From contig NZ_JAJQXW010000001.1 in NCBI RefSeq assembly GCF_021246445.1, positions 434,001 through 498,000 of the forward strand: a stretch of DNA of 64,000 bases, read 5' to 3'. The translations under genes and the position numbers were made by a program. This document shows, in pieces, positions 17,017 through 62,580 of the stretch (positions are counted from its first letter, which is position 1; each line of letters begins with the position of its first letter). The notes beneath the pieces were generated by a model, which saw only the letters and a program-made list of their open reading frames with translations, did no database searches and was not told where the DNA came from. The DNA comes from Rhabdothermincola salaria (GTDB lineage Bacteria > Actinomycetota > Acidimicrobiia > Acidimicrobiales > Acidimicrobilacustridaceae).

Positions 17017-17031
17017 GCCACGCAGCGTGGT
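17017..17031. promoter_or_regulatory. BldD-box-like palindrome upstream of the Flp/Tad cassette
   Basis: gCCACGCAGCGTGGt; near-identical to the site upstream of the bldD homologue. Confidence 0.6.
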
Positions 17032-17040
17032 ACACCATTG

Positions 17041-17108
17041 TCGTCTCACCAGTTCCTGGACCGTTCGCGGTGAGACGAGGACGGCGACCCATTCGGGTCG
17101 CCGTCCTC
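17041..17108 (+). ncRNA. Candidate structured leader or small RNA (three-way junction plus 14-bp hairpin)
   Basis: tcgtctca/tgagacga enclosing ccag-ttc-ctgg and ccg-ttcg-cgg, followed by gaggacggcgaccc-attc-gggtcgccgtcctc; family not recognised. Confidence 0.4.
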
Positions 17109-17133
17109 CCTGGACATCTGAAGGGAACGCCGG

Positions 17134-17784
17134 ATGGAGCTGTCGTCGCGTCGCCGCGACCGGGGGGCCACCCTGGTCGAGTACGCCCTGATCCTCGCCC
17201 TCGTGGTGGTGGCTGCCGTCGCGTCCATCCAGTTCCTCACCAATCAGAGCGAGGCCGAGGTGGCCAACCAGGCCGATTGCGTGTCCACCCGGCCCCCTCC
17301 GCCGAGCTGCCAGGCCCGCGCGGTCACCACCACCACCACGACCATCCCGCCCGAGACCACCACCACGATCGCTCCCGAGACCACCACCACCGAATCCACG
17401 ACCACCACCACGTCCACGACAGCGCCGCCGTCGAGCACCACGAGCACGACCGCCCCTCCGGAGCAGTTCGACCTCACCCTGACCGGTTCGACAGAGAGCT
17501 TCTATCTCTGGTGGCGAGCCTTCGGCGCCATCTACGTCGTCGATGCTGATGGCGCGCCGGCCCGGGGTGTGACTGTCGTGCTCACCATCCAAGAGGCGGG
17601 CCAGTCGGGAGCTTCGACCGTCTCGTGTCAGACGTCGAACGCGGCTGGGGGTCCCAACGCAGGGCGTTGCTCGGTTGCGAGCCCCTGGATGTGGCGGTCG
17701 GATGTGCCATCGGTGGAGATCACGGTGATCACCGTCGACGGGCAACCCGTCACCCCGACCCAGCTCACGATCCCGCGCCCGTGA
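17134..17784 (+). CDS. Flp-type pilin with Thr-rich stalk and C-terminal beta-rich domain
   Basis: Class III signal RDRG|ATLVEYALIL (E5, Y6) plus hydrophobic helix; poly-Thr linker; two Cys pairs. Confidence 0.8.
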   Translation: MELSSRRRDRGATLVEYALILALVVVAAVASIQFLTNQSEAEVANQADCVSTRPPPPSCQARAVTTTTTTIPPETTTTIAPETTTTESTTTTTSTTAPPSSTTSTTAPPEQFDLTLTGSTESFYLWWRAFGAIYVVDADGAPARGVTVVLTIQEAGQSGASTVSCQTSNAAGGPNAGRCSVASPWMWRSDVPSVEITVITVDGQPVTPTQLTIPRP

Positions 17785-18413
17785 TGAACGACGTTCGGGC
17801 CCGAGGCGACCACGGAGTAGCCATCGTGGAGATGGCCCTGGTGTCGCCGATCTTGTTCACGTTGCTCCTCGCGGTCTTCGAGTACGGCCTCGTCTACCGG
17901 GACATCCTCACGGCGGCCGACGCCGCCAGCGACGGCGCTCGCGTCGGGTCGCAACAGGGCAACGACGTGCTCGTGACCGGCGCCACCGCCGACTACACGA
18001 TCGTCGATGCCGTCCGCATGGGCTTGGCCGGGCTGGACCCGGAATCGATCGAGCGGATCGTCGTCTACCAGGCGGGCCCGCCGAGCGACGGCAGCCCGTT
18101 GTCCCAGGTCCCGGCGGCATGCCGCACCGGAGGATCGAGCACCGCCGCCGACTGCAACGTGTACCTCCCCGCAACGGCCTTCGTCGCCATCCAGGACGGC
18201 GACGTCGAGTTCTTCGAGTGCGTCGATGCCGGCGACCCGGCGTGCGGCTGGGACCCGACCACGCGCGTCGACGGGCCGACCGTCGCCGACATCGAGTACC
18301 TCGGGGTCTACGTCGAGGTGCGCCATGACTACCTGACGGGGCTGTTCGGCTCCGCGTTCGACATCGAGCGGGCCAGCATCACCCGCATCGAGCCCGGGGA
18401 CCTGAGCGGATGA
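17784..18413 (+). CDS. TadE-like pseudopilin
   Basis: DHG|VAIVEMALVSPILF...AASDGARVG; TGATG coupling to the upstream gene; Cys-rich. Confidence 0.88.
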   Translation: MNDVRARGDHGVAIVEMALVSPILFTLLLAVFEYGLVYRDILTAADAASDGARVGSQQGNDVLVTGATADYTIVDAVRMGLAGLDPESIERIVVYQAGPPSDGSPLSQVPAACRTGGSSTAADCNVYLPATAFVAIQDGDVEFFECVDAGDPACGWDPTTRVDGPTVADIEYLGVYVEVRHDYLTGLFGSAFDIERASITRIEPGDLSG

Positions 18414-19027
18414 GGCCGACGACGCAGCACCGCGGGACGGGCGACGAGGGAGCGGTGCTCGTCGAGTTCGCTCTGGTCTTGCCCTTCCTCGTGCTGATCT
18501 TCCTCGGGGTCGTCGACTACGGCTCCGCGTTCAACGACGCCAACCGGGTCGACCGCGCCGTGCTGAGCGCAGGGCGCACGGTGTCGTCGGTCGCCGACGG
18601 TCGCCAGGCCGACTTCGCCACCGTCCAATCGCTGGCTTCGAGCCTCGAGACCAGCAGTCGCGTGAGCATCGAGAAGGTCATCATCTACGACTCGACCGCA
18701 GCCGATGGTGCGGTCCCCGCCAACTGCCTCAGCGTCTCGACGACGGGGTCCCCGCCCTTCGGCGTGAACGGTCGGTGCAACGTGTACACGGGTGCGCAGG
18801 TGGCCAGTGCCACCCAGGCCAGCTTCGCCGGAACCTCGAGCTGCACAGCGGGCAGCTGGGACCGCCGGTGGTGCCCCACGAGCCGCCAGCGCGACGTCAA
18901 CCCCGACCGGGTGGGCGTGTGGGTCCAGGTGAGCTACGCGCCGCTGACGGGTCTGCTGCCTGCGGGCGGCCTCACCGTCGAACGCAGCGCGATCTACCAA
19001 CTCGAGCCCACCGCCGCAGGGAGCTGA
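18410..19027 (+). CDS. TadE/TadF-like pseudopilin
   Basis: DEG|AVLVEFALVLPFL...AGR; ATGA overlap; four Cys. Confidence 0.88.
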   Translation: MRPTTQHRGTGDEGAVLVEFALVLPFLVLIFLGVVDYGSAFNDANRVDRAVLSAGRTVSSVADGRQADFATVQSLASSLETSSRVSIEKVIIYDSTAADGAVPANCLSVSTTGSPPFGVNGRCNVYTGAQVASATQASFAGTSSCTAGSWDRRWCPTSRQRDVNPDRVGVWVQVSYAPLTGLLPAGGLTVERSAIYQLEPTAAGS

Positions 19028-19031
19028 GAGC

Positions 19032-20642
19032 GTGCACCGAGTCGAGAACCGGAAGCGAGGGCGAGCGCAGCGCCCCCTCAGGGCTCAGGACGGGTTCATC
19101 CTCGTGCTCACCGCGCTGCTGTTGCTACCGCTGCTGGCCTTCACGGGGCTCGCCGTGGACCTCGGCTCGTGGCTGGGGCGAGCCGCACAGATCCAGAAGG
19201 CGGCGGATGCCGCCGCACTGGCCGGCGTGGCCTACCTGCCCGACACCGGCCGCGCCGACCGCGCGGCGCGGGAGGTGGCCACCGCCAACGGGTTCACCGA
19301 CGGCACCGATGGGATCTCCGTCTCGGTCACACCGGTCTCCGGGAACAGCGCTCAGCTCCGCGTGACCATCACCGACGCCGGCGCCGACCAGTACTTCACC
19401 GAGCCCTTCACCGGGGGTGCTGTCGACATCACTCGTGCGTCAACCGCCGAGTACATCAAGCCGGTGCCCATGGGCAGCCCCAAGAACTTCCTCGGCACCG
19501 GCGGTCTGCTCAGTGGGTCCAATCGTGAGAACTTCTTCTTGGCGGTGAGCGGGGGATGCTCTTCGAAGGAGCAGGGCGACCGCATCATGACCCAGACCGA
19601 CGCCAACTTCACCACGACGAACAACCCCCCTACGGGATCGAACGGGTGGAACCGGTGCACCGGTTCCACCACGATCGTCAACCAGAGCTACGACCCGAAC
19701 GGGTACTTCTACGCAGTCGAGTTCGCCCAGGACTACGCCGGTTCGGTGCGCCTCCAGGTCTACGACGCCCCCTACTGCACCAGCGGTGGGGCAGGGGACT
19801 CCACCGGCGCCTTCACCACGCGCTTCACGGTGAGGGACAACACCTCCTTCAACCCCTTGAACACCGGCGTCATCAACAGTCGCGTCTTCTCGCCTTCGGA
19901 TTGCGGCTCGTGGGGTGGGCGATGGGAGACCCTCCACACCCTCGTGAACCCGACGGCGGGCACCTACTTCATCCAGGTGCAGGGGCAATCGCAGGCCGAG
20001 GCCGGCAGCCAGGACCAGATGGGCTCCAACTCGTTTGGGCTCCGCGCCCTCGAGACCCGCTACGGAGGGTCGTTCCAGCCGTGCACGTCGGACCCGAGCC
20101 AGTCCGGTTCCCGAGTCGACTGCCCCAACGTCTACGGCGTGAACAACATGGGGATCCTGGCCGCGCTCGCTGGGACCACGCCGTCGTTCTACCTGGCCGA
20201 GATCGGCCCCGAGCACAACAACAAGACCATGGAGATCAGCTTGTGGGACCCGGGCGAGGGCTCGCTCGAACTCGAAGTCCTCGACCCGACCGGTGACCCC
20301 GCGACGTTCCGATGGGAAGTCCTCTGCCAGGACGGCAGCTCGGCGCCGTGCGCGGGCGAGATCGCACCCAACGGTGGCTACGGGCCTCAGGTGGACGACG
20401 AGCTCGACCTCGGGAACCCGTCGAGCGACTATCCCCAGCCCGGTCCGCACCGGGTGTCGACCTCCAAGTACAGCGATCGGCTCCTCAAGCTCACCATCGA
20501 GCTCCCCACCGACATCACCGCCGCCTATGGGGGGCTCACCTGGTGGAGGATCCGCTACACGGTGGGCAGCGCCCCCACCGACCGCACGACGTGGGCTGTC
20601 GCCGTGAAGGGCGACCCCGTGCGACTGATCCCCAACGACTGA
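19032..20642 (+). CDS. TadG-like pilus-associated adhesin
   Basis: QDG|FILV..., GLAVDLG, QKAADAAALAG (Tad N-terminal domain); large Cys/Gly/Thr-rich extracellular region; no obvious vWA MIDAS motif. Confidence 0.85.
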   Translation: MHRVENRKRGRAQRPLRAQDGFILVLTALLLLPLLAFTGLAVDLGSWLGRAAQIQKAADAAALAGVAYLPDTGRADRAAREVATANGFTDGTDGISVSVTPVSGNSAQLRVTITDAGADQYFTEPFTGGAVDITRASTAEYIKPVPMGSPKNFLGTGGLLSGSNRENFFLAVSGGCSSKEQGDRIMTQTDANFTTTNNPPTGSNGWNRCTGSTTIVNQSYDPNGYFYAVEFAQDYAGSVRLQVYDAPYCTSGGAGDSTGAFTTRFTVRDNTSFNPLNTGVINSRVFSPSDCGSWGGRWETLHTLVNPTAGTYFIQVQGQSQAEAGSQDQMGSNSFGLRALETRYGGSFQPCTSDPSQSGSRVDCPNVYGVNNMGILAALAGTTPSFYLAEIGPEHNNKTMEISLWDPGEGSLELEVLDPTGDPATFRWEVLCQDGSSAPCAGEIAPNGGYGPQVDDELDLGNPSSDYPQPGPHRVSTSKYSDRLLKLTIELPTDITAAYGGLTWWRIRYTVGSAPTDRTTWAVAVKGDPVRLIPND

Positions 20643-20710
20643 CCCGACGGCAGCGTCCGCCTGAGAACCTTCGTCGGAGCGGGGTCGGTGGCGCCGTAGG
20701 CTTGGCCGCC

Positions 20711-22003
20711 GTGTCCGGATTCGTCGACGAGTGCCAGATCCACGTGCGAGCAGGCGACGGCGGCGCGGGCGCGGTCGCCGTGCGACGCGAAGCCCACGTG
20801 GCCAAGGGCGGCCCCGACGGCGGCGACGGCGGCAAGGGCGGCGACGTCTGGTTGGTGGCCGACACCAACGTGGCCTCGTTGCTCGCCTTTCGCGATCACC
20901 CCCACCGGCGGGCTGGCAACGGCGCGCACGGGTCGGGCAAGAAGAAGCACGGCGCCGGCGGCGACGACACCATCGTGCACGTCCCCGAAGGGACCGTCGT
21001 GCTCGACCGCGACGGCACCGTGCTCGCCGACCTGGTGCACGCCGGCGACCGCTGGATGGCCGCCGCCGGCGGCCGGGGCGGCAAGGGCAACGCCCGCTTC
21101 CTGTCCAACAAGCGCCGCGCCCCCATGTTCGCCGAGCAGGGAGAGGAGGGCGAGGAGTTCTGGCTCAACCTCGAGCTCAAGCTCATGGCCGACGTCGCCC
21201 TCGTCGGCTTCCCCAACGTCGGCAAGTCCACCCTCATCTCGCGGGTGTCGGCCGCCAAGCCCCGCATCGCCGACTACCCCTTCACCACCCTCGAGCCCAA
21301 CCTCGGCGTGGTCCGCCTCGACGACGGCTTCGAGTACGTGGTGGCGGACATCCCGGGCCTCATCGAAGGGGCCAGCGAGGGCAAGGGCCTCGGCCACCGC
21401 TTCCTGCGCCACATCGAACGGGCCCGGGTGCTGGTGCTGCTCATCGACCTCGCCGGCGGCGACACCGGGACCACCTCCGCCGACCCCGCCGAGCAGATCG
21501 CCGTGCTCCTGCGCGAGCTCGAGCAGTACCAGCCTGATCTCGTCGACCGACCCCGCCTGCTCGTCGGGTCCCGCGCCGACCTGGTCCCCGAGGTCCTGCC
21601 CCTCGCCGAAGCCGGCGACGGCATGGTGACCGGCGACGGCGTCGCCCTCGACCTGTGCATCTCGGCGGTCACCGGTGCCGGGCTGGCCCACCTGCGGGGT
21701 CGCCTGGCCGACGCCGTGCGTGAGGTGCGGGCGGTCGTCCCCGAGAAGGAGGGGTTCGTCATCCACCGGCCCTTCGCCGAGGGCGTCGAGGTCGTGCGCG
21801 ACGACGACGGCAGCTTCCGGGTCCTCGGTCGCGAAGCCCAGCGGGCCGTGGCCCTGTCGGACCTCACCAACGACGAAGCCCTCGACTTCGCCCACGCCCG
21901 CCTCAAGAAGCTCGGTGTCGACCGGGCCCTCGCCCGCGCCGGTGCCCGCGAGGGCGACATCGTGCACATCGGTGGCCTGAGCTTCGAGTACGAGGACGAA
22001 TGA
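20711..22003 (+). CDS. obgE: GTPase ObgE
   Basis: FVDE, GGPDGGDGGKGG, GFPNVGKST, IADYPFTTLEPNLG, DIPGLIEGAS; C-terminal DUF1967-like domain. Confidence 0.97.
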   Translation: MSGFVDECQIHVRAGDGGAGAVAVRREAHVAKGGPDGGDGGKGGDVWLVADTNVASLLAFRDHPHRRAGNGAHGSGKKKHGAGGDDTIVHVPEGTVVLDRDGTVLADLVHAGDRWMAAAGGRGGKGNARFLSNKRRAPMFAEQGEEGEEFWLNLELKLMADVALVGFPNVGKSTLISRVSAAKPRIADYPFTTLEPNLGVVRLDDGFEYVVADIPGLIEGASEGKGLGHRFLRHIERARVLVLLIDLAGGDTGTTSADPAEQIAVLLRELEQYQPDLVDRPRLLVGSRADLVPEVLPLAEAGDGMVTGDGVALDLCISAVTGAGLAHLRGRLADAVREVRAVVPEKEGFVIHRPFAEGVEVVRDDDGSFRVLGREAQRAVALSDLTNDEALDFAHARLKKLGVDRALARAGAREGDIVHIGGLSFEYEDE

Positions 22004-22034
22004 CCACCGAGGCCCGGGCGGTGGGAGCGACCCC

Positions 22035-23129: not shown

Positions 23130-23143
23130 TCCTCTGCTCAGCT

Positions 23144-23298: not shown

Positions 23299-23324
23299 GG
23301 ACTCTGCGAGACGAGGGTGGTGGA

Positions 23325-23568: not shown

Positions 23569-23619
23569 GCGCTCGGCCGACGAGCGGTCAGCTGACGAGC
23601 AGTCAGCCGATGAGCGGGC
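23564..23619. repeat. Imperfect 15-bp tandem repeat (gacgagcNNtcRgcY), about 4 units
   Basis: Units start at 23564, 23579, 23594 and 23609. Confidence 0.7.
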
Positions 23620-31008: not shown

Positions 31009-31019
31009 CCGCGACCTCG

Positions 31020-35708: not shown

Positions 35709-35776
35709 AATCCTGACGTGCCAGGTCGGGAATGTACTCGGGTCGGGGCCAAAAGGCGACTGTTCCGATCGGAATT
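35709..35776. promoter_or_regulatory. Two Rrf2 (IscR/CymR)-like operator candidates
   Basis: AATCCTGAC-N7-GTCGGGAAT (35709-35733) and AAAGGCGAC-N7-ATCGGAATT (35752-35776); AT-rich for this genome. Confidence 0.5.
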
Positions 35777-35871
35777 TGCGAGAATACCCGGTGGGGTATG
35801 GCGCCTGGGTCCGACGGCCCCTTGGGTCGTTTCCCGCTCAAGGACGCCGCCGGGGTGGCCGACACGTCGGT

Positions 35872-37815
35872 GTGAGCACGTCCGCGAGCACCCCTGCGAT
35901 CTCCCCGCCGCCCGGCGTGCCGGTGCGCCCCGGGGAACGGGGCGTGGGCGTGCGCGCCCGTCAGGTCCTCGCCGTGCTGGCCCTGCTGCTCGGGGGTGCC
36001 TACCTGGTGTGGCGCGTCGGCTGGACCGGCGACGGCGCCCTGGTGTGGACCTTCTGGCTGCTGGTGGCGGCCGAGGCCTTCGGGTGGCTCAGCCTCGCCC
36101 TCTACGCCTTCATGGCCTGGAAGGTCCCCGAGACGGTGCGGCCGGCCATCGTCAGCCCCCGGACGGTGGACGTCTTCGTCACCACCTACGACGAGTCGGT
36201 GCCCGTGGTGCACGCCACCCTGGTCGGCTGCCGCGCCATCCGCCACCCCCACACCACCTGGCTCCTCGACGACGGACGCCGCCCCGAGATGGAGGCCCTC
36301 GCCGAGTCGATGGGGGCCCGCTACCTGACGCGGGCGGACAACGCCCACGCCAAGGCCGGCAACATCAACGCCGCGCTCACCCGCACCGAGGGCGACCTGA
36401 TCCTGACCCTCGACGCCGACCACGTGCCCTTCCCCGACATCCTCGACGCCACCGTCGGCTACTTCGAGGACGAGTCCGTCGCCCTGGTGCAGACCCCTCA
36501 CGACTTCGCCAACCGCGACTCGATGCAGCACACCCGCCCGGACCGCCACGAGCAGAGCCTCTTCTACGAGGTCATCGCGCCCGGCAAGGGACGTCACGGG
36601 GCCGCCTTCTGGTGTGGGTCGGCGACCGTCATCCGTCGAGCTGCCCTCGAAGAGGTCGGCGGAGTGCAGACCGAGACCGTCGCCGAGGACTTCCACACCA
36701 CCCTCGCCATGCACGCCGCCGGGTGGTCCACCCGTTACCACCACGAGACGCTGGTGCAGGGCCTGGCCCCCCACGACCTCGCCGGCTTCCTGTTGCAGCG
36801 CGACCGCTGGGCCCGAGGCAACCTCCGGGTCTTCCGCACCCGGGAGAACCCGGTCACGTGCCCCAACCTCACCGTGAAGCAGCGCCTCAGCTACACCGCC
36901 TCGCTGCTCAACTACTTCTCCGCCTACCAGCGCCTGGCCCTGCTGGTCGTCCTGATCGTCACCCTCGTCTCGGGCCGCTTGCCCCTGCACGCCGACCCCG
37001 TCGCCCTGCTGGCGCTGTGGCTGCCGTGGACGGTCGCCGCCTTCGCCAGCACCCTGGCGCTGGGGCGAGGACGCCTCGGGCCGCTCGACGCATCGCGCTA
37101 CGGGTTGTTGACCATGGCCATCTTCGCCCGCGCCGCCGGCGTGCTGTTCACCCGCAAGGTCGGCACCTTCAAGGTCACCCCCAAGGAGGGCACCGACGCC
37201 GGCGGCGTCGAGGTCCTGCGCGCCGCGAAGATGGTCGTGGCCTTCGCCGCCGTGCTGGCGGTGGCGGTGGTGGCCCGCGCCGTCGCCGCCGTCGGCTGGC
37301 TGGGCCTGCCGCCTCTCGTCGGGTTCGCCCTCTGGGTCACGCTGGCCCTCGGTGCCTACGAGCTGTGGGTCATGCTGTGGACGCTCGGTCCCCTCGTCCG
37401 CCGCCGCCAGCTGCGCCACGACTACCGCTACCCCGTGCAGCTGTCGGGCCGCGTCGACGGCGGACTGGTGCGGGTGCGCGACCTCAGCACCAAGGGCGCC
37501 GGGCTCGACGGCCTCGTCGACCGCCGGGTCGGCGACATCATCGAGCTGCGGCTGTGGTTGCCCGACAGCACCGGCACGGTCCGCGAGAACGTGCTGGTGG
37601 GCCTGGTGCGGTCGCGCCGCACGGTCGACGGCCACATGACCGGCGTCGGGGTCATGTTCGACGACCTCGATCGGGTGACCCGGGACCGGCTGGTCGAGTA
37701 CCTGGCGGTGGTGCGCGGCGCCGAGGTGGCTCGCCGGGGGTCGCCCGTGGAGGCGCCGGCGTCGCCGACGGGCGAGGCCTCGGCCGAACCCACGAGGTTT
37801 CCGCGGGCGGTCTGA
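35872..37815 (+). CDS. BcsA-like GT2 processive glycosyltransferase with C-terminal PilZ domain
   Basis: DDG, HAKAGNIN, DAD, VQTPH, FWCGS, AED, QRDRW, FKVTPK; PilZ RHDYR and DLSTKG. Confidence 0.9.
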   Translation: MSTSASTPAISPPPGVPVRPGERGVGVRARQVLAVLALLLGGAYLVWRVGWTGDGALVWTFWLLVAAEAFGWLSLALYAFMAWKVPETVRPAIVSPRTVDVFVTTYDESVPVVHATLVGCRAIRHPHTTWLLDDGRRPEMEALAESMGARYLTRADNAHAKAGNINAALTRTEGDLILTLDADHVPFPDILDATVGYFEDESVALVQTPHDFANRDSMQHTRPDRHEQSLFYEVIAPGKGRHGAAFWCGSATVIRRAALEEVGGVQTETVAEDFHTTLAMHAAGWSTRYHHETLVQGLAPHDLAGFLLQRDRWARGNLRVFRTRENPVTCPNLTVKQRLSYTASLLNYFSAYQRLALLVVLIVTLVSGRLPLHADPVALLALWLPWTVAAFASTLALGRGRLGPLDASRYGLLTMAIFARAAGVLFTRKVGTFKVTPKEGTDAGGVEVLRAAKMVVAFAAVLAVAVVARAVAAVGWLGLPPLVGFALWVTLALGAYELWVMLWTLGPLVRRRQLRHDYRYPVQLSGRVDGGLVRVRDLSTKGAGLDGLVDRRVGDIIELRLWLPDSTGTVRENVLVGLVRSRRTVDGHMTGVGVMFDDLDRVTRDRLVEYLAVVRGAEVARRGSPVEAPASPTGEASAEPTRFPRAV

Positions 37816-49653: not shown

Positions 49654-50517
49654 GTGGCCGAACCAGGTGCCAGCGACACGGTCGACGAGCGCGCTCGGAT
49701 CGCCCTCGAGGCGCTGCGAGCGCACGAGCCCTCCGACCGCAGTCCGGTGGTCGCGCCCGACTACGAGCTCGAGGGCGTCGTCGTCGACCACGGCCTCCCG
49801 GCCTGGGTCGAGGACATCCACGGGCGGGTGGCGGCTCGCTGGCCGGTCCTCGACGAGCGTCCGGGGTGGACCGTGGGTCTGTTGGCCGTCGTCGGGGCGG
49901 TCCTGGTGGGAGTGGGGGCGTGGTGGCTGACCGGTGGCGGGTCGTCAGGAGGCGGGCCGCCTCCCACCTTGGCGTTCACCTCCACCAGCGCAGCGGCGGC
50001 AGCCGAGGAGACGCCCCCGGCCGGCTCGGGCTCGCCGTCCACCGCCCCCACGGCGCTGGTGGTGCACGCCGCCGGTGCCGTCCACCAGCCGGGTGTCCAC
50101 CGCCTCGAACCCGGGGCCCGGGTCGCCGACGTGGTGGCCGCCGCCGGCGGGGCCACCCCCGATGCCGACCTCGACCGGGTGAACCTGGCCGCGCCCGTCG
50201 CTGACGGCGAGCGGCTCTACGTCCCCCGTCTGGGTCAGCCCGATCCACCGCTGGTGGCCGGATCCGGTGGCGGTCCATCCGGCGGTTCCGCGTCGGGACC
50301 CGGTGCCTCCGAAGGCGGCACGGGGCCGATCGACGTCAACGCCGCCACCGTGGCCGAGCTCGACGCCTTGCCCGGCGTCGGGCCCGCCACCGCCGAGGCC
50401 ATCGTGGCCCACCGGGAGACCAACGGACCCTTCCGACGGGTCGAGGATCTCCTCGGGGTGCGAGGCATCGGTCCGTCCAAGCTCGACGGGCTGCGCGACC
50501 ACGTCGTGATCGGGTGA
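49654..50517 (+). CDS. comEA: ComEA family DNA-binding competence protein
   Basis: TM, SLBB (VHAAGAVHQPG, NLAAPVADG), HhH (INAAT-like, LPGVGP, VRGIGP); start uncertain. Confidence 0.92.
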   Translation: MAEPGASDTVDERARIALEALRAHEPSDRSPVVAPDYELEGVVVDHGLPAWVEDIHGRVAARWPVLDERPGWTVGLLAVVGAVLVGVGAWWLTGGGSSGGGPPPTLAFTSTSAAAAAEETPPAGSGSPSTAPTALVVHAAGAVHQPGVHRLEPGARVADVVAAAGGATPDADLDRVNLAAPVADGERLYVPRLGQPDPPLVAGSGGGPSGGSASGPGASEGGTGPIDVNAATVAELDALPGVGPATAEAIVAHRETNGPFRRVEDLLGVRGIGPSKLDGLRDHVVIG

Positions 50518-52427
50518 GCACCACCCCCGCGGTGGGACCGGACCCCGAGTGGGGCGGGGTGGCGGTGGCCCGTCGGGTGTGGTGGTGGTGGGCCCGCCAG
50601 GCTCGGGCCCGACAACTCGACGATCCGGCGGCGGTGGTGCTGGCCGGGTCGGCGGCGTTGGGGACGCTGGCCGCCGTTCCGGTCCCGGTGCCGGTGGCGG
50701 CGGTCCTGGCCGCGGCCGCGCTCGCCGCCCGACGCGTCCTGCTGGTGTGGTGTGCCGCCGCCCTGCTCACCTCGGCCCTGGCCGCGCAGGCCTGGGCGGG
50801 GCTGGCCGCCATCGAGGCCGGGCCCCACGACGGGATGGTGACCCTGGCCCGAGACCCGGAGGCGGTCGTGGGGGCCTGGCGGGTGGAGGTCGTCGCCGAC
50901 GGTCACCGCCTCGAGGCGTGGGCTCGCGGTGGGGCCGGCGCGGCGCTGAAGGACCGGGCCGCCGGCCAGCGGGTGCGGGTGCGTGGGCGCGTGGAGCCGG
51001 TGCAGGGTGTGCCCTGGTTGGCGGCTCGTCACGTGGCCGGGCGCCTGGTGATCGACGACGTGGGGGAGTGGGAGGACGGTGACCCGCTGTCCCGCCTGGC
51101 CAACGCGGTGCGCGCGCTGGTGCGTCGGGGTGCCGAGCGCCTGCCTCGCGAGCAGCGTGCGCTGCTGCTCGGATTCGTGCTCGGCGACGGTCGCGAGCAA
51201 CCGCCCGAGGTGGCCGACGACTTCGACGCCGCCGGTCTGCAGCACCTCCTCGTCGTGTCCGGCCAGAACGTGGCGTTCGTGCTCGCCGCCATCGGCCCGG
51301 GCCTGCGTCGACTCGGTCCGCGCGCCCGCCTGGTGGCCACCGTCGCCGTGCTGGTGGTGTTCGCCACCGTGACGCGCTTCGAGCCGTCGGTGCTGCGGGC
51401 CACGGCCATGGCCGCTCTGGCCGTGCTCGGGGCCAGCCTCGGTCGTCCCGCGTCGGGCGTGCGGGTCCTGGCCCTGGCCGGCACGGCGCTGTTGGTGGCC
51501 GACCCCTTCCTCATCCACTCGATCGCCTTCCGGCTCTCGGCCGCCGCCTCGGCCGGCATCTTGTTGCTCTCGGGGCCGCTGGCGCGCGCTGTCCCCGGTC
51601 CCCGGTTCGTCGTCGTGCCCCTCGCGGTGACCCTGGCGGCGCAGGCCGCCGTCGCCCCGGTGCTGGTGCCCATCTTCGGGCCCATGCCGGTGGCGGCCAT
51701 TCCCGCCAACCTCCTGGCCGGACCGGTGGCGGGGCTGGTGATGATGTGGGGGTGCAGTGCCGGGTTGGTGGCCGGGGTCGTCGGTGGACCGGTGGCCGGC
51801 CTGCTGCAGTGGCCCACCGGGCTGGGGATCGCCTGGGTGGCGGGCGTGGCCCGTTGGGGAGGGGCCCTGCCGCTCGGGCAGGTGGGGCTCCTCGGGGTCG
51901 TGGTGGCCGTCGCCGGCGGGGCCGGCCTCGGTCTGGCTCGCGCCCGGTCCCGGCCCGGGTGGGCGCTGGTGTGCGCTCTGGTCGTCGTGGCGGCCCTCCT
52001 CGCGCCCGCGGTGGGCGAGGTGAGGCGGGACCCTCGCCCGGGGGTCGCCGAGGTGTCCGGTGGCGTGGTCTGGCGCGGTGCCGCGGGCGAGGGCGCCGGC
52101 GGCCGCCGGGCCGTCGTGGTGGTGCTCGACGGTGACGCCTCGGCGGAGTACCTGCTCCGCGACCTGCGTGAGGCGGGCATCGGACGGGTCGACCTGGTGG
52201 TGTCCCGGTCCGGCGGCTCGCGTGCCGCGTCCACGCTCGCCGTGCTGGCCCGTCGGGTGTCGATCGATCAGGTGTGGGCCCCGTCGGGTCACGACATCGC
52301 CGGGGCCGTCGTCCCTCCCGTGGGCGTTTCGGCCGCCGGTGGGGTGCAGGTCGACGTGCGGGCCGTGACGCCGCGGCTCGAGGTGGATGTCGCCGTCCTC
52401 GGCGCCAGCCGACCCTCGGCTCGGTGA
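50514..52427 (+). CDS. comEC: ComEC/Rec2 DNA uptake channel
   Basis: GLQHLLVVSGQNV, EPSVLRA, FRLSAAA, PANLLA; GTGA overlap with comEA. Confidence 0.92.
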   Translation: MSTTPAVGPDPEWGGVAVARRVWWWWARQARARQLDDPAAVVLAGSAALGTLAAVPVPVPVAAVLAAAALAARRVLLVWCAAALLTSALAAQAWAGLAAIEAGPHDGMVTLARDPEAVVGAWRVEVVADGHRLEAWARGGAGAALKDRAAGQRVRVRGRVEPVQGVPWLAARHVAGRLVIDDVGEWEDGDPLSRLANAVRALVRRGAERLPREQRALLLGFVLGDGREQPPEVADDFDAAGLQHLLVVSGQNVAFVLAAIGPGLRRLGPRARLVATVAVLVVFATVTRFEPSVLRATAMAALAVLGASLGRPASGVRVLALAGTALLVADPFLIHSIAFRLSAAASAGILLLSGPLARAVPGPRFVVVPLAVTLAAQAAVAPVLVPIFGPMPVAAIPANLLAGPVAGLVMMWGCSAGLVAGVVGGPVAGLLQWPTGLGIAWVAGVARWGGALPLGQVGLLGVVVAVAGGAGLGLARARSRPGWALVCALVVVAALLAPAVGEVRRDPRPGVAEVSGGVVWRGAAGEGAGGRRAVVVVLDGDASAEYLLRDLREAGIGRVDLVVSRSGGSRAASTLAVLARRVSIDQVWAPSGHDIAGAVVPPVGVSAAGGVQVDVRAVTPRLEVDVAVLGASRPSAR

Positions 52428-52480
52428 GCCCTCGGTCCGACCGGTCGAGGCCATCGGGCCCCGCTGTAGGGTCGGTCCCC

Positions 52481-53311
52481 GTGTTCCTCGACCTCGGCAC
52501 CACGCGCTTCGACATCACCCACCGCGCCGTGGTCATGGGCATCTTGAACCGCACCCCGGACTCGTTCTACGACCAGGGCGCCTATTACGACTTCGACGCC
52601 TTCCTGCGCAAGGCCGAGCAGCTGGTCACCGACGGCGCCGACTTCCTCGACGTCGGCGGCGTGAAGGCCGGGCCCGGCGAGGAGGTCACCGAGGCCGAGG
52701 AGCTCGAGCGCGTCGTGCCGGCGGTCGAGGCCCTGCGGGCCCGATTCGATCTCCCGCTCTCGGTCGACACCTGGCGAGCGTCGGTGGCCGAGGCCTGCTT
52801 CGCGGCCGGCGCGGTGGTGGGCAACGACATCAGCGGGTTCGCCGACCCCGACTACCTCGCTGTCTGTGCGGCGGCCGGCGCCTCGGTCGTCGCCACCCAC
52901 ATCCGCCTGGCGCCCCGGGTGCCCGACCCGGACCCCCACTACGACGACCTCGTCGTCGACGTGTGCGACTTCCTGCGCGACCGGGCCCGGAGGGCCCGTG
53001 AGGCCGGCATACCGGCCGAGCGGATCATGGTCGACGCCGGCCTCGATCTCGGCAAGACCGAGGAGCAGTCCCTCATCTTGTTGCGCCGCTCCGACGCTCT
53101 GGCCGAGCTGGGCCACCCGGTCTTCCTGTCGGCGTCGAACAAGCGCTTCCTGTGGACCCTGCTCGGGGTCGAGCGCCACGAGGCCGGCGAGGGCACCATG
53201 GCCGCCCATGCGCTCGGCATCGCCCTCGGTTGTCGGGTGCTCCGGGCCCACGACGTCCGCGACGGCCGCCGGGTGGCCGACACCATGGCCGCCATCCTGG
53301 AGGCCGCGTGA
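52481..53311 (+). CDS. folP: Dihydropteroate synthase family protein (FolP2-like)
   Basis: GILNRTPDSFYD, DVGGVKAGPG, SVDT, NDISG, SNK, RAHDV. Confidence 0.88.
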   Translation: MFLDLGTTRFDITHRAVVMGILNRTPDSFYDQGAYYDFDAFLRKAEQLVTDGADFLDVGGVKAGPGEEVTEAEELERVVPAVEALRARFDLPLSVDTWRASVAEACFAAGAVVGNDISGFADPDYLAVCAAAGASVVATHIRLAPRVPDPDPHYDDLVVDVCDFLRDRARRAREAGIPAERIMVDAGLDLGKTEEQSLILLRRSDALAELGHPVFLSASNKRFLWTLLGVERHEAGEGTMAAHALGIALGCRVLRAHDVRDGRRVADTMAAILEAA

Positions 53312-53391
53312 CACCCCCCACGCCGGCCCCCGCGCCGCCCCCCACGCCACCGGCCACGCCGGCCCCCGCGCCGCCGGCCACTCCCGATCCG

Positions 53392-53439
53392 TTCTTGCAT
53401 GGTTTCGGCGCACTCCAGTGCGCCGAAACCATGCAAGAA
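53392..53439. repeat. Perfect 23-bp inverted repeat (2-nt spacer)
   Basis: ttcttgcatggtttcggcgcact-cc-agtgcgccgaaaccatgcaagaa. Confidence 0.95.
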
Positions 53440-53498
53440 GGCGTGTCGGGGGCTTCGGGGCGGTCGGGGGCGTCGCCGCGGGGGGCGGGGTCGCTGCG

Positions 53499-54545
53499 AT
53501 GAACGTCGATCTTTCGGCGCCGGTGTACCTGGTCAAGGGGGCCGACGAGGTGCTGCTGGGCGATGCCGTGGTCGACCTGGTGCGGGCCCTGGTGGGCGAC
53601 GGCGACCGGTCGCTGATGGTCGAGGAGCTCACCGCCGACGCCTACGACGGTGACGAGGGCATGGACATCGCCCCGCTGGTCGACGCCGCCCAGACCTCTC
53701 CCTTCCTCACCGAGCGCCGGGTCGTGGTCGCCCGCCATGCCGGGGTGTTCAGCACCAAGGACGCGGTGGCGCCGCTGGTCGGCTACCTCGCCGACCCGCT
53801 GCCCACCACGTCGCTGGTGCTGGTGTGGGAGAAGGACACGCGCCCCAACAAGCAGGGCCGCCTGGCCAACGTGCCCCGCAGCCTGAGCGACGCGGTCACC
53901 ACGGCCGGCGGCGTGGTGGTCGACACCGCGCCCGGCACCGGCAAGGCCCGCGCCTCGTGGGTCGACGAGCACCTGCGCGACGCGTCCGTCACCCTCGACA
54001 ACCCAGCCCGAGCGGCGCTGGTGACCCACCTCGGTGACGAGGCCAACCGTCTCCCCGGCCTGTTGTCGACGCTCGAGGGCGTCTTCGGGCCCGGTGCCCG
54101 GCTCGGGGTCGACCAGGTGATGCCGTACCTCGGCGAGGCCGGGGACGTGGCCCCCTGGGACCTCACCGACGCCATCGATGCCGGCGATGTCCCCAAGGCG
54201 CTCGACCAGCTGCACCGCATGCTGGCCGGGGGCGGCCGTCATCCGTTGCAGGTCATGGCCACGCTGACCAACCACGTGGTGCGCATGGTCCGCCTCGACG
54301 ACCCCACCATCCGGGGGGAGAAGGCGGCCGCCGAGGCCCTGGGCATCAAGGGCTCGACCTTCCCGGCCAAGAAGGCGCTCGCCGGGGCCCAGCGGCTCGG
54401 TTCGGAACGGCTGGCCGAGCTGGTGGGCCTGGTCGCCCAGGCCGACCTCGATCTGCACGGGGCCAAGGCGTGGCCGCCGGAGCTGGTGGTCGAGGTGCTG
54501 GTGGCCCGTCTGGCCGGCCGGAGCCGGGCCGCCACCCGCCGCTGA
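53499..54545 (+). CDS. holA: DNA polymerase III delta subunit
   Basis: VYLVKG, QTSPFLTERRVVV, WDLTDAI, ADLDLHG; conserved comEC-holA-rpsT synteny. Confidence 0.88.
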   Translation: MNVDLSAPVYLVKGADEVLLGDAVVDLVRALVGDGDRSLMVEELTADAYDGDEGMDIAPLVDAAQTSPFLTERRVVVARHAGVFSTKDAVAPLVGYLADPLPTTSLVLVWEKDTRPNKQGRLANVPRSLSDAVTTAGGVVVDTAPGTGKARASWVDEHLRDASVTLDNPARAALVTHLGDEANRLPGLLSTLEGVFGPGARLGVDQVMPYLGEAGDVAPWDLTDAIDAGDVPKALDQLHRMLAGGGRHPLQVMATLTNHVVRMVRLDDPTIRGEKAAAEALGIKGSTFPAKKALAGAQRLGSERLAELVGLVAQADLDLHGAKAWPPELVVEVLVARLAGRSRAATRR

Positions 54546-57132: not shown

Positions 57133-57303
57133 GCCACCAGAGGACGGGTCTTGCTCTGCCGGCTCGTCGAGATCCTCGGCCTGGTCGAGCCTCCTCTCGT
57201 CGCGGCGTCGTCTGTCACCCGGGTGGACAGCGTGCGCCTTGAGTCTGCACCCAGCGACGCTGTGCCTCTACATGAGCCCCGCGACGACCGATAGGGTTCA
57301 CCC

Positions 57304-57930
57304 ATGGTGCGGGGCTTGGCTCTCCTCGTGGTGTTGGCGCTCGCCGGCACCGCCTGCGGAAGCGAGGACGGCGCCACCGGCAGCTCCGGCGCCACCGACA
57401 CCACGGCGGCGACCAGCGATGCGTCGTCGGGCGGCGACACGGCCTCTGATGACACTGCCTCTGAGGACACGGGCTCTGACGGCACGGGCGGGTCGACCAC
57501 GAGCGAAGCCGGGACCGGCAGCGGCTCGGCCACGGTCACCCACGCAGGCTCCCAGTACGAGTTCGTGGTGATCCAGTGCGTGCGCGACGTGCCGTCGGCC
57601 ATCACCGACAGCGTCGTGGCGCTGCAAGCCGACGGTGTCACGGCGGGCACACCCGATGGCGTGGTCGCTGACCTCCTCGGGGTCATCGAGGAAGGCACCG
57701 ATGTGGCGGCTGCCCTCGCGCCCGCGCTGGCCCACGGCCCGGTGTTGAGCGTCACCCGGGTCGAAGGTGGAGGAGACCAGCTCGCGATCATCACGGAGTC
57801 GGAGCCCATCGTCACGACCGCAGATCCGACCGACCCCGCCCACCGTTTCCTGGACATCGACGGTGGCACCGTGAGCGGGACGGGGTCGACCGACCAAGGA
57901 GCGATGTCCCTTGACCTCACCTGTCCCTGA
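57304..57930 (+). CDS. Hypothetical lipoprotein with Ser/Thr/Asp-rich linker
   Basis: Signal peptide ending GTAC; DTASD-type 15-bp repeats at 57436-57480; two further Cys. Confidence 0.75.
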   Translation: MVRGLALLVVLALAGTACGSEDGATGSSGATDTTAATSDASSGGDTASDDTASEDTGSDGTGGSTTSEAGTGSGSATVTHAGSQYEFVVIQCVRDVPSAITDSVVALQADGVTAGTPDGVVADLLGVIEEGTDVAAALAPALAHGPVLSVTRVEGGGDQLAIITESEPIVTTADPTDPAHRFLDIDGGTVSGTGSTDQGAMSLDLTCP

Positions 57931-57934
57931 TGCC

Positions 57935-58774
57935 ATGAAGGCCGCCGCCGCGCTGGTGCTGGTCGCGGTGCTCAGCCCGTTGTTGCTGGGCTGCGGGAAC
58001 GGCGACGACGACACCGCCGGCGGCGGCGGCGACCCTGCGGTCCCGACGGCCGAGGACGCCGACGACTCCTCGACCGACCCGCCCACGGGCGACGACGCCG
58101 AGTCCGACGACGCCGAGTCCGACGACGCCGAGTCCGACGACGCCGCCGCCGAGGTGGTCGAGGAGCACTGGTTCAACGAGATCGACCAGTTCGATCGCCC
58201 TCGTGTGCGATGGACCGGGATCGTCGAGAACGTGGGATCGCAGCCGGTGGAGGTGTCCGTCGAGATCGAGGCGCTGGATGCCGATGGTGAGACGCTCGGC
58301 TCGGCCGACAGCCAGTTCCCCTGGCTCGTCGCTCCGGGCGAGCAGATGCCCTTCAGCCTCGCCATCGGTCGCCTCCCGACCGAGGCGACGTCCGTCGAGA
58401 GCGCCCTCTTGCTCGACGACCTCCCGGACTTCCGTGCCGAGCGGGTGGGCACCGCGACGTTCACCGGGGAGCTCGTCGACGTCGTCTTCGACGACGGCCG
58501 GGACTTCGTGGTCCGTGCCGACGTCGAGGTGGAGAACGTCGGAACGGTCGGGTGGGGTCCGGACTTCGCGCTCGCGGTCTACGCCGCCGACGGCACGCTC
58601 GTCAGCGGCGGTTGGGCGTCAGCGAACGCTGAGGTGCTCTGTCCGGGTGACACCACGGTCGTCGGGGGTGAGCTCACGATCAACCCTCCACCCGACTTCG
58701 ACCCGGCGAGTGCCGACGTCAGGGTTCACATGATCGACTTCGAGCTGGCCGAGTCGGTGACCGGCGACTGCTGA
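57935..58774 (+). CDS. Lipoprotein with two FxLYD-like beta domains
   Basis: Lipobox LLGC; (DDAES)3; repeated pattern VENVG...D/A-A-DG...PGE/PGD. Confidence 0.75.
   Translation: MKAAAALVLVAVLSPLLLGCGNGDDDTAGGGGDPAVPTAEDADDSSTDPPTGDDAESDDAESDDAESDDAAAEVVEEHWFNEIDQFDRPRVRWTGIVENVGSQPVEVSVEIEALDADGETLGSADSQFPWLVAPGEQMPFSLAIGRLPTEATSVESALLLDDLPDFRAERVGTATFTGELVDVVFDDGRDFVVRADVEVENVGTVGWGPDFALAVYAADGTLVSGGWASANAEVLCPGDTTVVGGELTINPPPDFDPASADVRVHMIDFELAESVTGDC
58091..58135 (+). repeat. Perfect coding tandem repeat (gacgacgccgagtcc) x3
   Basis: Direct reading of the sequence. Confidence 0.92.
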
Positions 58775-58909
58775 GACAAGCCGCCTCACTCCCGTCCCGG
58801 CCCAGACGCAGAAGGCCGACGATCTCGCAGGCGGCACCGTCCGGGCTCGACCAGAGGCCCACCGCGTCGGTCTGGCCCGTCGTCGCGACGCCGATGGGAT
58901 GCTCGCCGG

Positions 58910-58936
58910 CTAGCAGTCGCGGGGGTCGTCTGCTGG
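58910..58936. promoter_or_regulatory. Degenerate CIRCE operator upstream of hrcA
   Basis: CTAGCAGTC-N9-GTCTGCTGG versus TTAGCACTC-N9-GAGTGCTAA; TAGGAT -10 at 58954-58959. Confidence 0.65.
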
Positions 58937-59046
58937 CCGTGGGCCCGGCCCGGTAGGATCGGATGAAGATCGGCCCACCGGCCGTCACCACCTCGGCCCA
59001 CGGCCGGACCCACTCGTAGCCGCAGCACCCGATCAACGGACGTCCC

Positions 59047-60078: not shown

Positions 60079-60089
60079 CACCAACCTCC

Positions 60090-61196
60090 ATGGCTGACTA
60101 CTACGAGCTCCTCGGGGTCTCCCGCGACGCCACCGCCGACGACATCAAGCGGTCCTATCGTCGACTCGCCCGCGAGCACCATCCCGATGCCAACCCCGGC
60201 GACGTCGAGGCCGAGGCCCGCTTCAAGCAGGTGGCCGTGGCCTACGAGACCCTCTCCGACCCCGAGCGCCGCCGCCAGTACGACATGTTCGGCGAGGCCG
60301 GACCCGGGGCGCAGTCGCCCTTCGGCGGCGGCGGGCTGGGCGACATCTTCGACATGTTCTTCAACCAGGGCGGGTTCGGTGGTGGTGGCCAGACGGCCCC
60401 GAGCGGCCCGCCGCGGGGCAGCGACCTCGAAGCCGTGGTCGACCTCGAGTTCGCCGACGCCGTGTTCGGTGCCCAGGCACCCGTGTCGGTGCGTACGGCC
60501 ATGCCCTGCGACGACTGCGAGGCCACGGGGGCCGCGCCCGGCTCGCAGGCCCAGACCTGCGTCGAGTGCGCGGGCGTCGGCCAGGTGCGCCGGGTGCGCC
60601 AGTCGATCCTCGGGCAGATGGTCACGGCCGGCCCGTGTCCCCGGTGCAACGGGTTCGGCACGGTCGTGCCCACGCCGTGCCCCACCTGTCGGGGCGAAGG
60701 CCGCAGCATCGAGGAGCACACCTTCAACGTCGACGTCCCGGCGGGGGTCGACACCGGCGCCACGCTGCGCCTGCCCGGTCGGGGCGCCGTGGGTCCCCGC
60801 GGCGGGGCCGCCGGCGACCTCTACGTGCACGTGCGGGTCGCACCCGACGACCGCTTCGTGCGCCACGGCGACGACCTCCACCACGACCTGCACGTCGCCG
60901 CCACCCAGGCCGCGCTGGGCGCCGAGATCCCCCTCACCACGCTCGACGGCGACGAGGTCGTGGCGGTGGCCCCCGGGACCCAGACCGGCAAGGTGCACCG
61001 GCTGCGAGGCCAGGGCGTGCCCCACCTCCAGAGCCGCGGGCGAGGCGACCTGCTGGTCCAGATCGTGGTCGACACGCCCACCGAGCTCTCCGAGGAGGAG
61101 GCCGAGCTGCTGCGCCAGTTGGCCGAGCTCCGAGGCGAGGAGGTCGCCTCGCCGGAGTCAGGGCTGTTCTCGCGGCTCAAGTCGGCCTTCAAGTAG
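60090..61196 (+). CDS. dnaJ: Chaperone DnaJ
   Basis: J domain with HPD, G/F region, four CxxCxGxG-type repeats. Confidence 0.97.
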
Positions 61197-61198
61197 AG

Positions 61199-61915
61199 GT
61201 GCCCTCGTTGGCGGCGGGCGTCCCCGGGGGCACTGCGCCCCACGTTGGCGTCGACGACGTCGAGGTCCCGATCCTCGCTGGCGACGACCGGCACCACCTC
61301 GAGCGGGCCCTTCGGCTCCGCGCCGGCGATCGTGTCAGCGTCACCGACGGCGCCGGTCGGTGGCGGTGGTGCCGCTTCGGTCCCGAGCTGGTGCCCGACG
61401 GTCCCGTCGAGGCGGACCCGCCGCCGTCGCCGCCGATCACGGTGGCCTTCGCCCTGGTGAAGGGGGAGCGGCCCGAGCTGGTGGTGCAGAAGCTCACCGA
61501 GGTGGGCGTCGACCGCATCGTGCCGTTCTTCGCCGAACGGTCGGTGGTGCGCTGGGACGAGGCCAAGGCGGCCCGGCACCACGAGCGCCTCGTGCGCATC
61601 GCCCGGGAGGCGGCCATGCAGTGTCGCCGGACCTGGTGGCCCGAGGTGGTGGAGACGACCCGCTTCGAGGTCGTCGCCGCGCTTCCCGGGGCGGTCGCCG
61701 CCGAACGCCACGGCGCCGCCCCGTCACTCGAGCACCCCGTCGTGCTCATCGGTCCGGAAGGGGGCTGGTCCGACGAGGAACGCGGACGGCTGCCCGGTCT
61801 GGTCGGTCTCGGGCCCACGGTGCTGCGGGCCGAGACGGCGGCCATCGCCGCCGGGGTCGTCCTCTCGGCGCTGCGCTCGGCGGTCGTTCGACCGGTCTCG
61901 CCGCCGGACGCCTGA
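61199..61915 (+). CDS. rsmE: 16S rRNA m3U1498 methyltransferase
   Basis: QKLTEVGV, REAAMQCRR, IGPEGGW, LGPTVLRAETA. Confidence 0.93.
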   Translation: MPSLAAGVPGGTAPHVGVDDVEVPILAGDDRHHLERALRLRAGDRVSVTDGAGRWRWCRFGPELVPDGPVEADPPPSPPITVAFALVKGERPELVVQKLTEVGVDRIVPFFAERSVVRWDEAKAARHHERLVRIAREAAMQCRRTWWPEVVETTRFEVVAALPGAVAAERHGAAPSLEHPVVLIGPEGGWSDEERGRLPGLVGLGPTVLRAETAAIAAGVVLSALRSAVVRPVSPPDA

Positions 61916-61971
61916 CGTGCTCCGTCGGACCACGGCCACCGAGGGTCGTTGTCGTGGCGATGCCCCGGGAG

Positions 61972-61993
61972 TACGCTGACCACGCTGAGTGGC
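61972..61993 (+). promoter_or_regulatory. -10 element TACGCT followed by BldD-box-like palindrome (autoregulatory site candidate)
   Basis: TACGCT at 61972-61977; aCCACGCTGAGTGGc at 61979-61993. Confidence 0.6.
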
Positions 61994-62058
61994 GAAGCCG
62001 CCGGGCGGCCTCTCTGCCGCCGTCTCGCCTCGGCGCTCGTTTCCATGGAGGAACCCCG

Positions 62059-62580
62059 ATGACCGACACCGTGACCGGTGAGATGACCGAGACGTACAGC
62101 CGCAAGGTCGGCGACCGTCTACGGGCCATCCGACGCCAGAAGCGGCTGAGCCTCCAGGACGTGGAGGCGGCGTCGGACCTCGAGTTCAAGGCGTCGGTGC
62201 TGGGCGCGTACGAGCGCGGGGAGCGGGCCATCTCGGTCCCGCGCCTGCAGCGGCTGGCCCGCTTCTACAACGTCCCGGTCGATCAGCTGCTGCCCAACGA
62301 CGACGGCCCCGCCTTCGCCGAGGACGGGCCCGCGATGGGCATCATCGACGAGCGCTCCTTCACCATCGACCTGCGCCGCCTCGAGGACCTCACCGGCCCC
62401 GAGGCCGACATGTTGAACCGCTACCTGAGCATGATCCAGGTGCAACGCCAGGACTTCAACGGTCGGGTGCTCACCATCCGCAAGGACGACCTGCGAGCCA
62501 TCGCCTGCATCCTCGGCGTGGGCCCGAGTTCGGCCACCGAGCGTCTCGGCGACCTGGGACTCGGCCACGGCGTCTCCTGA
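62059..62580 (+). CDS. bldD: BldD-family XRE regulator with c-di-GMP-binding C-terminal domain
   Basis: LRAIRRQKRLSL, GAYERGERAISV.RL..LA.FYNVPV..LLP; IQVQ-RQD-FNGRVLTI-RKDD; RBS GGAGG. Confidence 0.88.
   Translation: MTDTVTGEMTETYSRKVGDRLRAIRRQKRLSLQDVEAASDLEFKASVLGAYERGERAISVPRLQRLARFYNVPVDQLLPNDDGPAFAEDGPAMGIIDERSFTIDLRRLEDLTGPEADMLNRYLSMIQVQRQDFNGRVLTIRKDDLRAIACILGVGPSSATERLGDLGLGHGVS

Follow-up and report, generated by a model that had tools for sequence, protein, structure and literature searches.

Predicted autoregulation of bldD in Acidimicrobiales and a candidate BldD-type operator beside a Tad-type pseudopilin cassette in Rhabdothermincola salaria

Introduction

Which genes would the regulator BldD control in a bacterium that does not form spores? 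We consider this question for a stretch of 64,000 nucleotides (nt) from the non-sporulating Acidimicrobiales bacterium Rhabdothermincola salaria (contig NZ_JAJQXW010000001.1, positions 434,001 to 498,000 of the forward strand; hereafter the window), which carries a bldD gene with palindromic boxes on its promoter and a closely similar, perfectly palindromic box upstream of a cassette of Tad-type pilin and pseudopilin genes. The BldD of Streptomyces is a repressor whose binding to DNA requires dimerisation through a bridge of cyclic di-GMP (c-di-GMP); to our knowledge, all work on BldD has been done in sporulating actinomycetes. The answer that emerges from sequence analysis has two parts of different strength: autoregulation of bldD is a well-supported prediction, and the proposal that BldD-(c-di-GMP) also binds the second box as a repressor of the pilus cassette, and perhaps of the divergent gene as well, has in our estimate a probability of roughly 0.5.

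Tschowri et al. (2014) defined the Streptomyces box as TNAC(N)5GTNA and the c-di-GMP signature as RXD/RXXD and, in the sections of the article drawn on here, describe a DNA complex at a resolution too low for assigning base contacts (PMC4151990). The fuller box NTNACNC(A/T)GNGTNAN, which goes back to den Hengst et al. (2010), is quoted in passages of PMC12879927 and PMC4282423. In the relevant part of their article, Chandra and Chater describe a convincing bldD orthologue in Acidimicrobium, regard the gene as ancient, and speculate on its roles in simple actinomycetes (PMC4255298). Extracts of Schumacher et al. (2021) describe the type IV pili of Rubrobacter as being under RsiG-WhiG control and report RsiG in 3/4 Acidimicrobiales species (PMC8325347), which indicates that c-di-GMP signalling exists in the order. 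A full-text literature search returned no paper tying BldD to Tad/Flp pili or giving a BldD regulon in Acidimicrobiia.

Results

A predicted BldD orthologue with a conserved c-di-GMP signature

62059..62580, plus strand: bldD orthologue, 173 amino acids (aa), with an XRE-type helix-turn-helix (HTH) and a BldD C-terminal domain containing RQD-X8-RKDD

The product of 62059-62580 matches Pfam HTH_3 (5.3e-11) and BldD-like_C (PF21179; 1.9e-21, 76.1 bits versus a cut-off of 27), its DNA-binding domain (residues 9-79) matches PDB entries 2ewt/4ob4 (E 4e-17), and its C-terminal domain matches 2mc4, 4oaz, 4oay, and 5khd at ~1e-11. Among NCBIfam models, the BldD equivalog NF050110 is the best family by far and aligns over the full length. 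A sequence-only reading of this DNA had taken the gene for a BldD homologue with RQD-X8-RKDD and an HTH that differs from that of Streptomyces, and the alignments agree on both counts: the HTH reads KASVLGAYERGER here and KAVVVGSYERGDR in Streptomyces (alignment to PDB 2ewt/2mc4), with the DNA-binding helix differing at F/W, S/V, L/V, A/S, and E/D, and the c-di-GMP region reads QRQDFNGRVLTIRKDD here versus QRGDYNGKVLSIRQDD in Streptomyces with RxD-X8-RxxD retained. By our own mapping, seven of eight nucleotide-contact residues are identical between the two proteins, S123 being replaced by T here.

For comparison, we sampled 80 bldD loci from 80 other Acidimicrobiales species (80 of 488 confirmed relatives; 64-87% identity); the closest proteins and loci all came from Acidimicrobiales/Acidimicrobiia. 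The bipartite RxD-X8-RxxD signature is kept in 80/80 orthologues, and residues 42-56, which form the recognition helix (EFKASVLGAYERGER), are identical in 79-80 of the 80 proteins. The gene order in the window is hrcA-dnaJ-rsmE-bldD-hemW; rsmE lies immediately 5' of bldD in 74/77 relatives' loci with enough flank, which we read as support for orthology, and hemW lies 3' in just 28/68. These data support the assignment of 62059-62580 as a BldD orthologue with the two-domain architecture of Streptomyces BldD-(c-di-GMP)4, and the conservation of the motif suggests that the protein would bind c-di-GMP. We note that no stop codon interrupts the bldD frame for 797 codons upstream, across rsmE and dnaJ (60187-62580), a high-GC artefact, so that lists of open reading frames (ORFs) alone mislead here.

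Palindromic boxes at fixed positions on bldD promoters

61949..61977, plus strand: bldD promoter read from the sequence, with -35 TTGTCG (61949-61954), a 17-nt spacer, and -10 TACGCT (61972-61977)
61980..61992, unstranded: BldD box 1, CCACGCTGAGTGG, 14.7 bits, rank 2 in the window
61936..61948, unstranded: BldD box 2, CCACCGAGGGTCG, 11.1 bits, rank 4 in the window

Box 1 starts two bases past the -10, covers the likely transcription start, and lies 66 nt before the bldD ATG at 62059, whereas box 2 abuts the -35 with a gap of zero. The arrangement recurs across the order. Among 81 bldD upstream regions (the 80 relatives plus the window), the layout TTGNNN-N16-19-TANNNT is present in 67; a box abuts the -35 in 32, mostly with gap 0, a box lies shortly past the -10 in 33, and a box lies inside the spacer in 16. 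The promoter in the window has both the -35-abutting and the post-10 box. This order-wide layout backs the placement of the -10 two nt before the box that had been proposed from the letters alone. A separate search for sigma-70-like sites gave none in 16800-17200 or 61850-62100, and a reading of the palindromes as terminators or hairpins was rejected since nothing terminator-like was found in these two intervals.

CAC-N5-GTG occurs at most 220 nt upstream of bldD, the interval used for all box counts, in 48/80 relatives, versus 4.8 on average and never more than 11 in random pieces of the same size from those loci. In an unseeded enumeration of trinucleotide inverted dyads with gaps of 0-12, the same dyad came out on top (48 versus 3.4), followed by the nested ACG-N3-CGT and CCA-N7-TGG. 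We scored sites with a palindromic, iteratively refined matrix built from the relatives' bldD loci alone, in which the site at 17018-17030 was never included. Sites of at least 12 bits are present in 54/80 of the relatives' bldD upstream regions versus 0.86% of 3835 control pieces, and sites of at least 8 bits in 73/80 versus 6.3% of control 220-nt pieces.

Thus, conservation upstream of bldD orthologues, which the sequence-only reading had set as a check, turned out as enrichment, and its suggestion that BldD binds its own promoter region fits both this conservation and the fixed promoter positions. The data support the palindrome past the -10 as a predicted operator-type element conserved across Acidimicrobiales in bldD promoters. 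Because the boxes are enriched upstream of bldD and sit at fixed places on a promoter of the form TTGNNN-N17/18-TANNNT, autoregulation of bldD is a well-supported prediction, and boxes at the -35 and past the -10 would fit repression by promoter occlusion.

Two observations count against this part of the proposal. The protein reaches 152.5 bits against NF050110, short of the equivalog cut-off of 250, and 7/80 relatives have no box of at least 8 bits within the 220 nt upstream of bldD, including the nearest relative, L001 (6.5 bits).

The box-poor regions are those of L001, L017, L019, L045, L051, L063, and L079. Three of them (L017, L019, and L045) belong to Microthrixaceae, and their weak sites are identical to each other. 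In the seven, autoregulation may have been lost, the promoter may lie farther off, or the start codon may be misplaced.

One operator consensus with a degenerate outer base

The matrix has the consensus Y-C-A-C-G-S-W-S-C-G-T-G-R, written YCACGSWSCGTGR. Like the Streptomyces box, it is a 13-base-pair (bp) dyad with an AC-N5-GT core and a central A/T; unlike that box, it has a strong C at position 2 and Y/R instead of T/A as outer base and, order-wide, G/C at positions 5/9. The sites upstream of bldD conserve the AC-N5-GT core, the central W, and the overlap with the promoter; the outer T/A is C/G in the window.

The sequence-only reading had regarded the outer T>C / A>G change as a lineage variant tied to the altered HTH. 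This interpretation found no support at the level of the order. Of 160 half-sites in the 80 relatives, 73 carry C as the outer base, 69 carry T, 16 A, and 2 G; canonical TCAC-N5-GTAA boxes are also found in the order (e.g. L020, L038, and L054), and mixed forms occur within a single operator (CCAC..GTAA in L049, TCAC..GTGG in L004). Because the outer base is about half C and half T while the helix is invariant, a single recognition helix appears to accept either pyrimidine at this position within the order, and the apparent variant is best described as degeneracy, not a switch.

A perfect palindrome between a dGTPase-like gene and a pseudopilin cassette

17018..17030, unstranded: candidate consensus BldD-type operator, CCACGCAGCGTGG, 17.0 bits, rank 1 in the window
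16924..16936, unstranded: weak second box, CCGCGGGAGGTGG, 8.9 bits, its centre 94 bp from that of the main operator
15719..16885, minus strand: dGTP triphosphohydrolase-like HD gene (dgt), Pfam HD and HD_assoc; NCBIfam dGTPase models at 1.6e-83, below equivalog cut-offs
17041..17105, plus strand: two stable hairpins (9-bp and 12-bp stems) in the flp-like leader, between operator and start codon
17134..17784, plus strand: flp-like gene, 216 aa, with a Flp-type leader, G/ATLVEY, a Thr/Pro-rich linker, and a C-terminal domain of ~100 aa
17784..18413, plus strand: TadE-like pseudopilin 1, Pfam TadE 48.6 bits versus a cut-off of 22.9; one base is shared between its start and the flp-like stop
18410..19027, plus strand: TadE-like pseudopilin 2, Pfam TadE 47.3 bits; 4-nt overlap with the preceding gene
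19032..20642, plus strand: TadG-like protein, 536 aa, Pfam Tad (PF13400) 33.1 bits versus a cut-off of 22.3

The second candidate operator, CCACGCAGCGTGG, is a perfect palindrome in the 248-nt gap between the ATG of the dGTPase-like gene (16885, minus strand) and the ATG of the flp-like gene (17134). It lies 104 nt from the flp-like start codon and 133 nt from the divergent dgt start codon, and its opposite-strand reading is identical to box 1 at 12/13 positions. The sequence-only reading had pointed out the two near-identical 13-mers and the perfect symmetry of this copy, which the sequence confirms, and had noted that both keep the ACnCWGnGT core; this core is found at just these two places in the window, where 8.0 occurrences would be expected. 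The pattern CCACNCWGNGTGG has exactly two matches in the window versus 0.11 expected, almost the figure of ~0.1 obtained earlier by hand, and at least two matches arose in 1/100 dinucleotide shuffles.

Scored with the relatives-only matrix, the best sites in the window are 17018-17030 (17.0 bits), 61980-61992 (14.7 bits), a site inside aspS (12.4 bits), and 61936-61948 (11.1 bits). The earlier designation of 17018-17030 as a BldD-type site before the tad cassette is therefore supported: no other site in the window scores as high with this matrix, to which 17018-17030 had not contributed. Intergenic DNA makes up 8.5% of the window (35 regions, 5,424 nt), and among these regions only the dgt/flp and rsmE/bldD gaps exceed 6.2 bits. 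The exact consensus YCACGSWSCGTGR matches the window once, at 17018-17030, and matches the 80 relatives' loci twice, both times in bldD promoters (L004 and L026). Outside bldD promoters, the relatives' loci comprise 1,217,219 bases, which we divided into coding sequence (CDS) and intergenic DNA with a crude gene caller; they contain one site of at least 17 bits, inside a CDS. The weak box at 16924-16936 is marginal because sites of at least 8 bits occur in 6.3% of random 220-nt pieces.

Other forms of the motif behave differently in the window. The strict Streptomyces pattern TNAC-N5-GTNA has one match, at 23593, versus 5.0 expected, and thus gives no signal for the canonical pattern; CCAC-N5-GTGG has six matches versus 3.2 expected. 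As a side observation, BldD-box-like words are depleted away from operators: the ACNCWGNGT count in the window is one instance, and another is the 1.2 Mb of relatives' DNA, where the shuffle rate would predict about four exact consensus matches and just the two in bldD promoters were observed.

Downstream of the site, the flp-like, tadE, tadE, and tadG genes overlap or abut each other. The Flp-TadE-TadE-TadG cassette named in the sequence-only reading stands for the two TadE proteins and for Tad/TadG, which exceed their cut-offs, but not fully for Flp: the flp-like protein, unusually long at 216 aa, reaches 20.3 bits against Pfam Flp_Fap, under the cut-off of 32.2, with the G/ATLVEY motif present. 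The TadG-like protein also has a weak match to the NCBIfam Rv3654c-family TadE-like model. Like known Flp/Tad (type IVc) loci, the cassette is a tightly packed operon in which a protein with a prepilin-like G/xxxxEY N-terminus is encoded together with a TadG-like protein and two TadE-like pseudopilins; unlike in those loci, the flp-like protein contains an additional domain and a Thr/Pro-rich linker and scores below the Pfam cut-off.

Is the palindrome an operator, and of which genes?

Several results weigh against a BldD-controlled pilus operon. The link to tad rests on one site in one genome, and the 80 sampled bldD loci contain no tad, dgt, or flp homologues, only weak GTPase matches to Obg. 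Among 52 window ORFs, chosen by third-position GC (GC3) and searched against Pfam, there is no TadA/CpaF, TadB/C, TadV, TadZ, or prepilin peptidase, so that in contrast to complete Flp/Tad loci the window has pilin/pseudopilin genes only. On either strand of 16823-17140, we found no TAnnnT and no TTG-N16-19-nAnnnT pair, and the window contains no WhiG-type promoter with at most two mismatches; the 19 matches with three mismatches all lie outside the dgt/flp gap. A second 13-mer that differs from the bldD site at no more than one position is not rare, the expectation being 0.31 per window. Finally, 0/80 relatives' bldD operators reach 17 bits, so a perfect site is unusual even among true targets, and the relatives contain 26 non-bldD sites of at least 13 bits (21 in CDS, 5 intergenic), the predominance of CDS indicating that strong chance matches do occur. 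The genes beside the rare intergenic boxes encode a phage integrase or belong to no family and are uninformative.

The alternative that survives best is that BldD regulates its own gene, but that 17018-17030 is a GC-rich inverted repeat that arose by chance and has no regulatory role. At the GC content of the window, ~45 perfect 6+1+6 palindromes are expected per 64 kb (an arithmetic estimate), the exact consensus appears in 20/100 dinucleotide shuffles of the window, sites of at least 16 bits lie inside CDS four times in the 1.2 Mb of relatives' DNA, no promoter is recognisable beside the site, and the pattern was spotted after the fact. Set against this, the site ranks first with an independent matrix, a score of at least 17.0 bits is reached in only 4% of 200 Markov-1 random windows, the site falls in the small intergenic fraction in which no region besides that of bldD exceeds 6.2 bits, and the relatives' 1.2 Mb lack the consensus outside bldD promoters. 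The chance of such a site is 4-20% window-wide and ~0.3-2% when scaled to the intergenic fraction. We regard a chance repeat as rather unlikely, and 17018-17030 as probably a functional BldD-type operator.

If the operator is real, it might still serve the divergent dGTPase-like gene (15719-16885, minus strand) instead of the tad cassette. A palindrome has no direction, the distances to the two start codons are both within the 40-200 nt usual between box and start codon at the relatives' bldD promoters, and the weak box at 16924-16936 is nearer dgt. However, a promoter could not be placed for dgt either, and it is on the plus strand that a structured leader and a four-gene operon begin directly downstream. 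Exclusive control of dgt seems unlikely to us; this reading also overlaps with the pilus proposal, since an operator between divergent genes can act in both directions. With or without dgt, we favour the tad operon as the presumed target.

That the conserved palindrome is the site of another regulator and merely conserved before bldD is very improbable: although binding of the boxes by Acidimicrobiales BldD is a prediction and the outer bases in the window differ from the Streptomyces consensus, the motif agrees with the BldD box known from experiment in its length, in the spacing of the dyad, in the AC/GT core, and in the central W, the boxes stand on the bldD promoter where a repressor would act, and bldD itself is given as a known BldD target in Streptomyces in the part of PMC4255298 consulted here.

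Discussion

Our working hypothesis for the circuit is as follows. Two predicted BldD boxes bracket the bldD promoter, one at the -35 and one past the -10, a layout common to most of Acidimicrobiales, and at high c-di-GMP the BldD dimer would shut off bldD transcription by blocking RNA polymerase. BldD-(c-di-GMP) would also bind the perfect box in the dgt/flp gap, and the bound protein would repress the flp-like/tadE/tadE/tadG operon, perhaps the dGTPase-like gene too. Boxes that overlap core promoter elements of the regulator's own gene are shared with Streptomyces BldD; the predicted target differs, being a pilus cassette or a dGTPase-like gene rather than sporulation genes.

The closest parallel is RsiG-WhiG of Rubrobacter, likewise a c-di-GMP-dependent Streptomyces developmental regulator with predicted control of pilus genes in a unicellular deep-branching actinobacterium. 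The two cases differ in kind, RsiG-WhiG being a sigma/anti-sigma pair that controls type IVa pil clusters by way of promoters of the form TAAA/GCCGATAA, which the window lacks, whereas we propose a repressor acting on Tad-type pseudopilin genes. If the proposal is true, it would be the second case, after RsiG-WhiG, in which the pili of such a bacterium are under a c-di-GMP switch known from Streptomyces development.

With BldD identity and predicted autoregulation in this lineage, the known system reaches a new class; should the tad site fail, this foreseeable widening of BldD autoregulation would be what is left. The new handles are the order-wide operator consensus, the conserved autoregulatory promoter layout, and one candidate non-self target, namely the Tad pseudopilin operon and/or the dGTPase-like gene. 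They bear on the open question, raised in the sections of Chandra and Chater cited above, of the role of bldD in simple, non-sporulating relatives (PMC4255298). The pilus link is a good lead from a single genome. A more general scenario, in which BldD-(c-di-GMP) directly represses Tad-type pilus genes throughout Acidimicrobiia and had an original role in surface appendages or attachment that was later rewired to sporulation in filamentous lineages, a course like the one suggested for RsiG-WhiG and the type IV pili of Rubrobacter, appears doubtful to us, and the ideas of an ancestral role and of a competence link are speculation.

Other features of the window

The gene order at the cassette is rne, rplU, rpmA, the dGTPase-like gene (minus strand), flp-like/tadE/tadE/tadG, and obg-proB. 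The rplU-rpmA and obg-proB genes are usually neighbours, and the dGTPase-like gene and the tad cassette here lie between them (15087-22003). Recent horizontal acquisition of the cassette was considered and rejected, its GC3 of 0.86-0.94 falling within the range of the window.

The flp-like leader is strongly structured, the fold of 17031-17140 reaching -54 kcal/mol (z = -3.5). Rfam assigns the leader to no family and gives one tRNA at the gathering threshold for the whole window, and a permissive Rfam scan of 16850-17200 returned sub-threshold noise alone. The hairpins could be an attenuator or a 5' structure that stabilises the mRNA.

No GGDEF/EAL gene is present among the 52 ORFs searched against Pfam. 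A comEA-comEC-folP-holA cluster lies at 49654-54545; upstream of comEA, no BldD-type site scores above 3.5 bits, which gives no sign of direct BldD control, so that the possible competence link raised in the sequence-only reading found no support. An ORF at 35718-37815 (~630-700 aa) has no Pfam or NCBIfam family, and two adjacent ORFs at 57304-58774 share a single FxLYD domain match between them.

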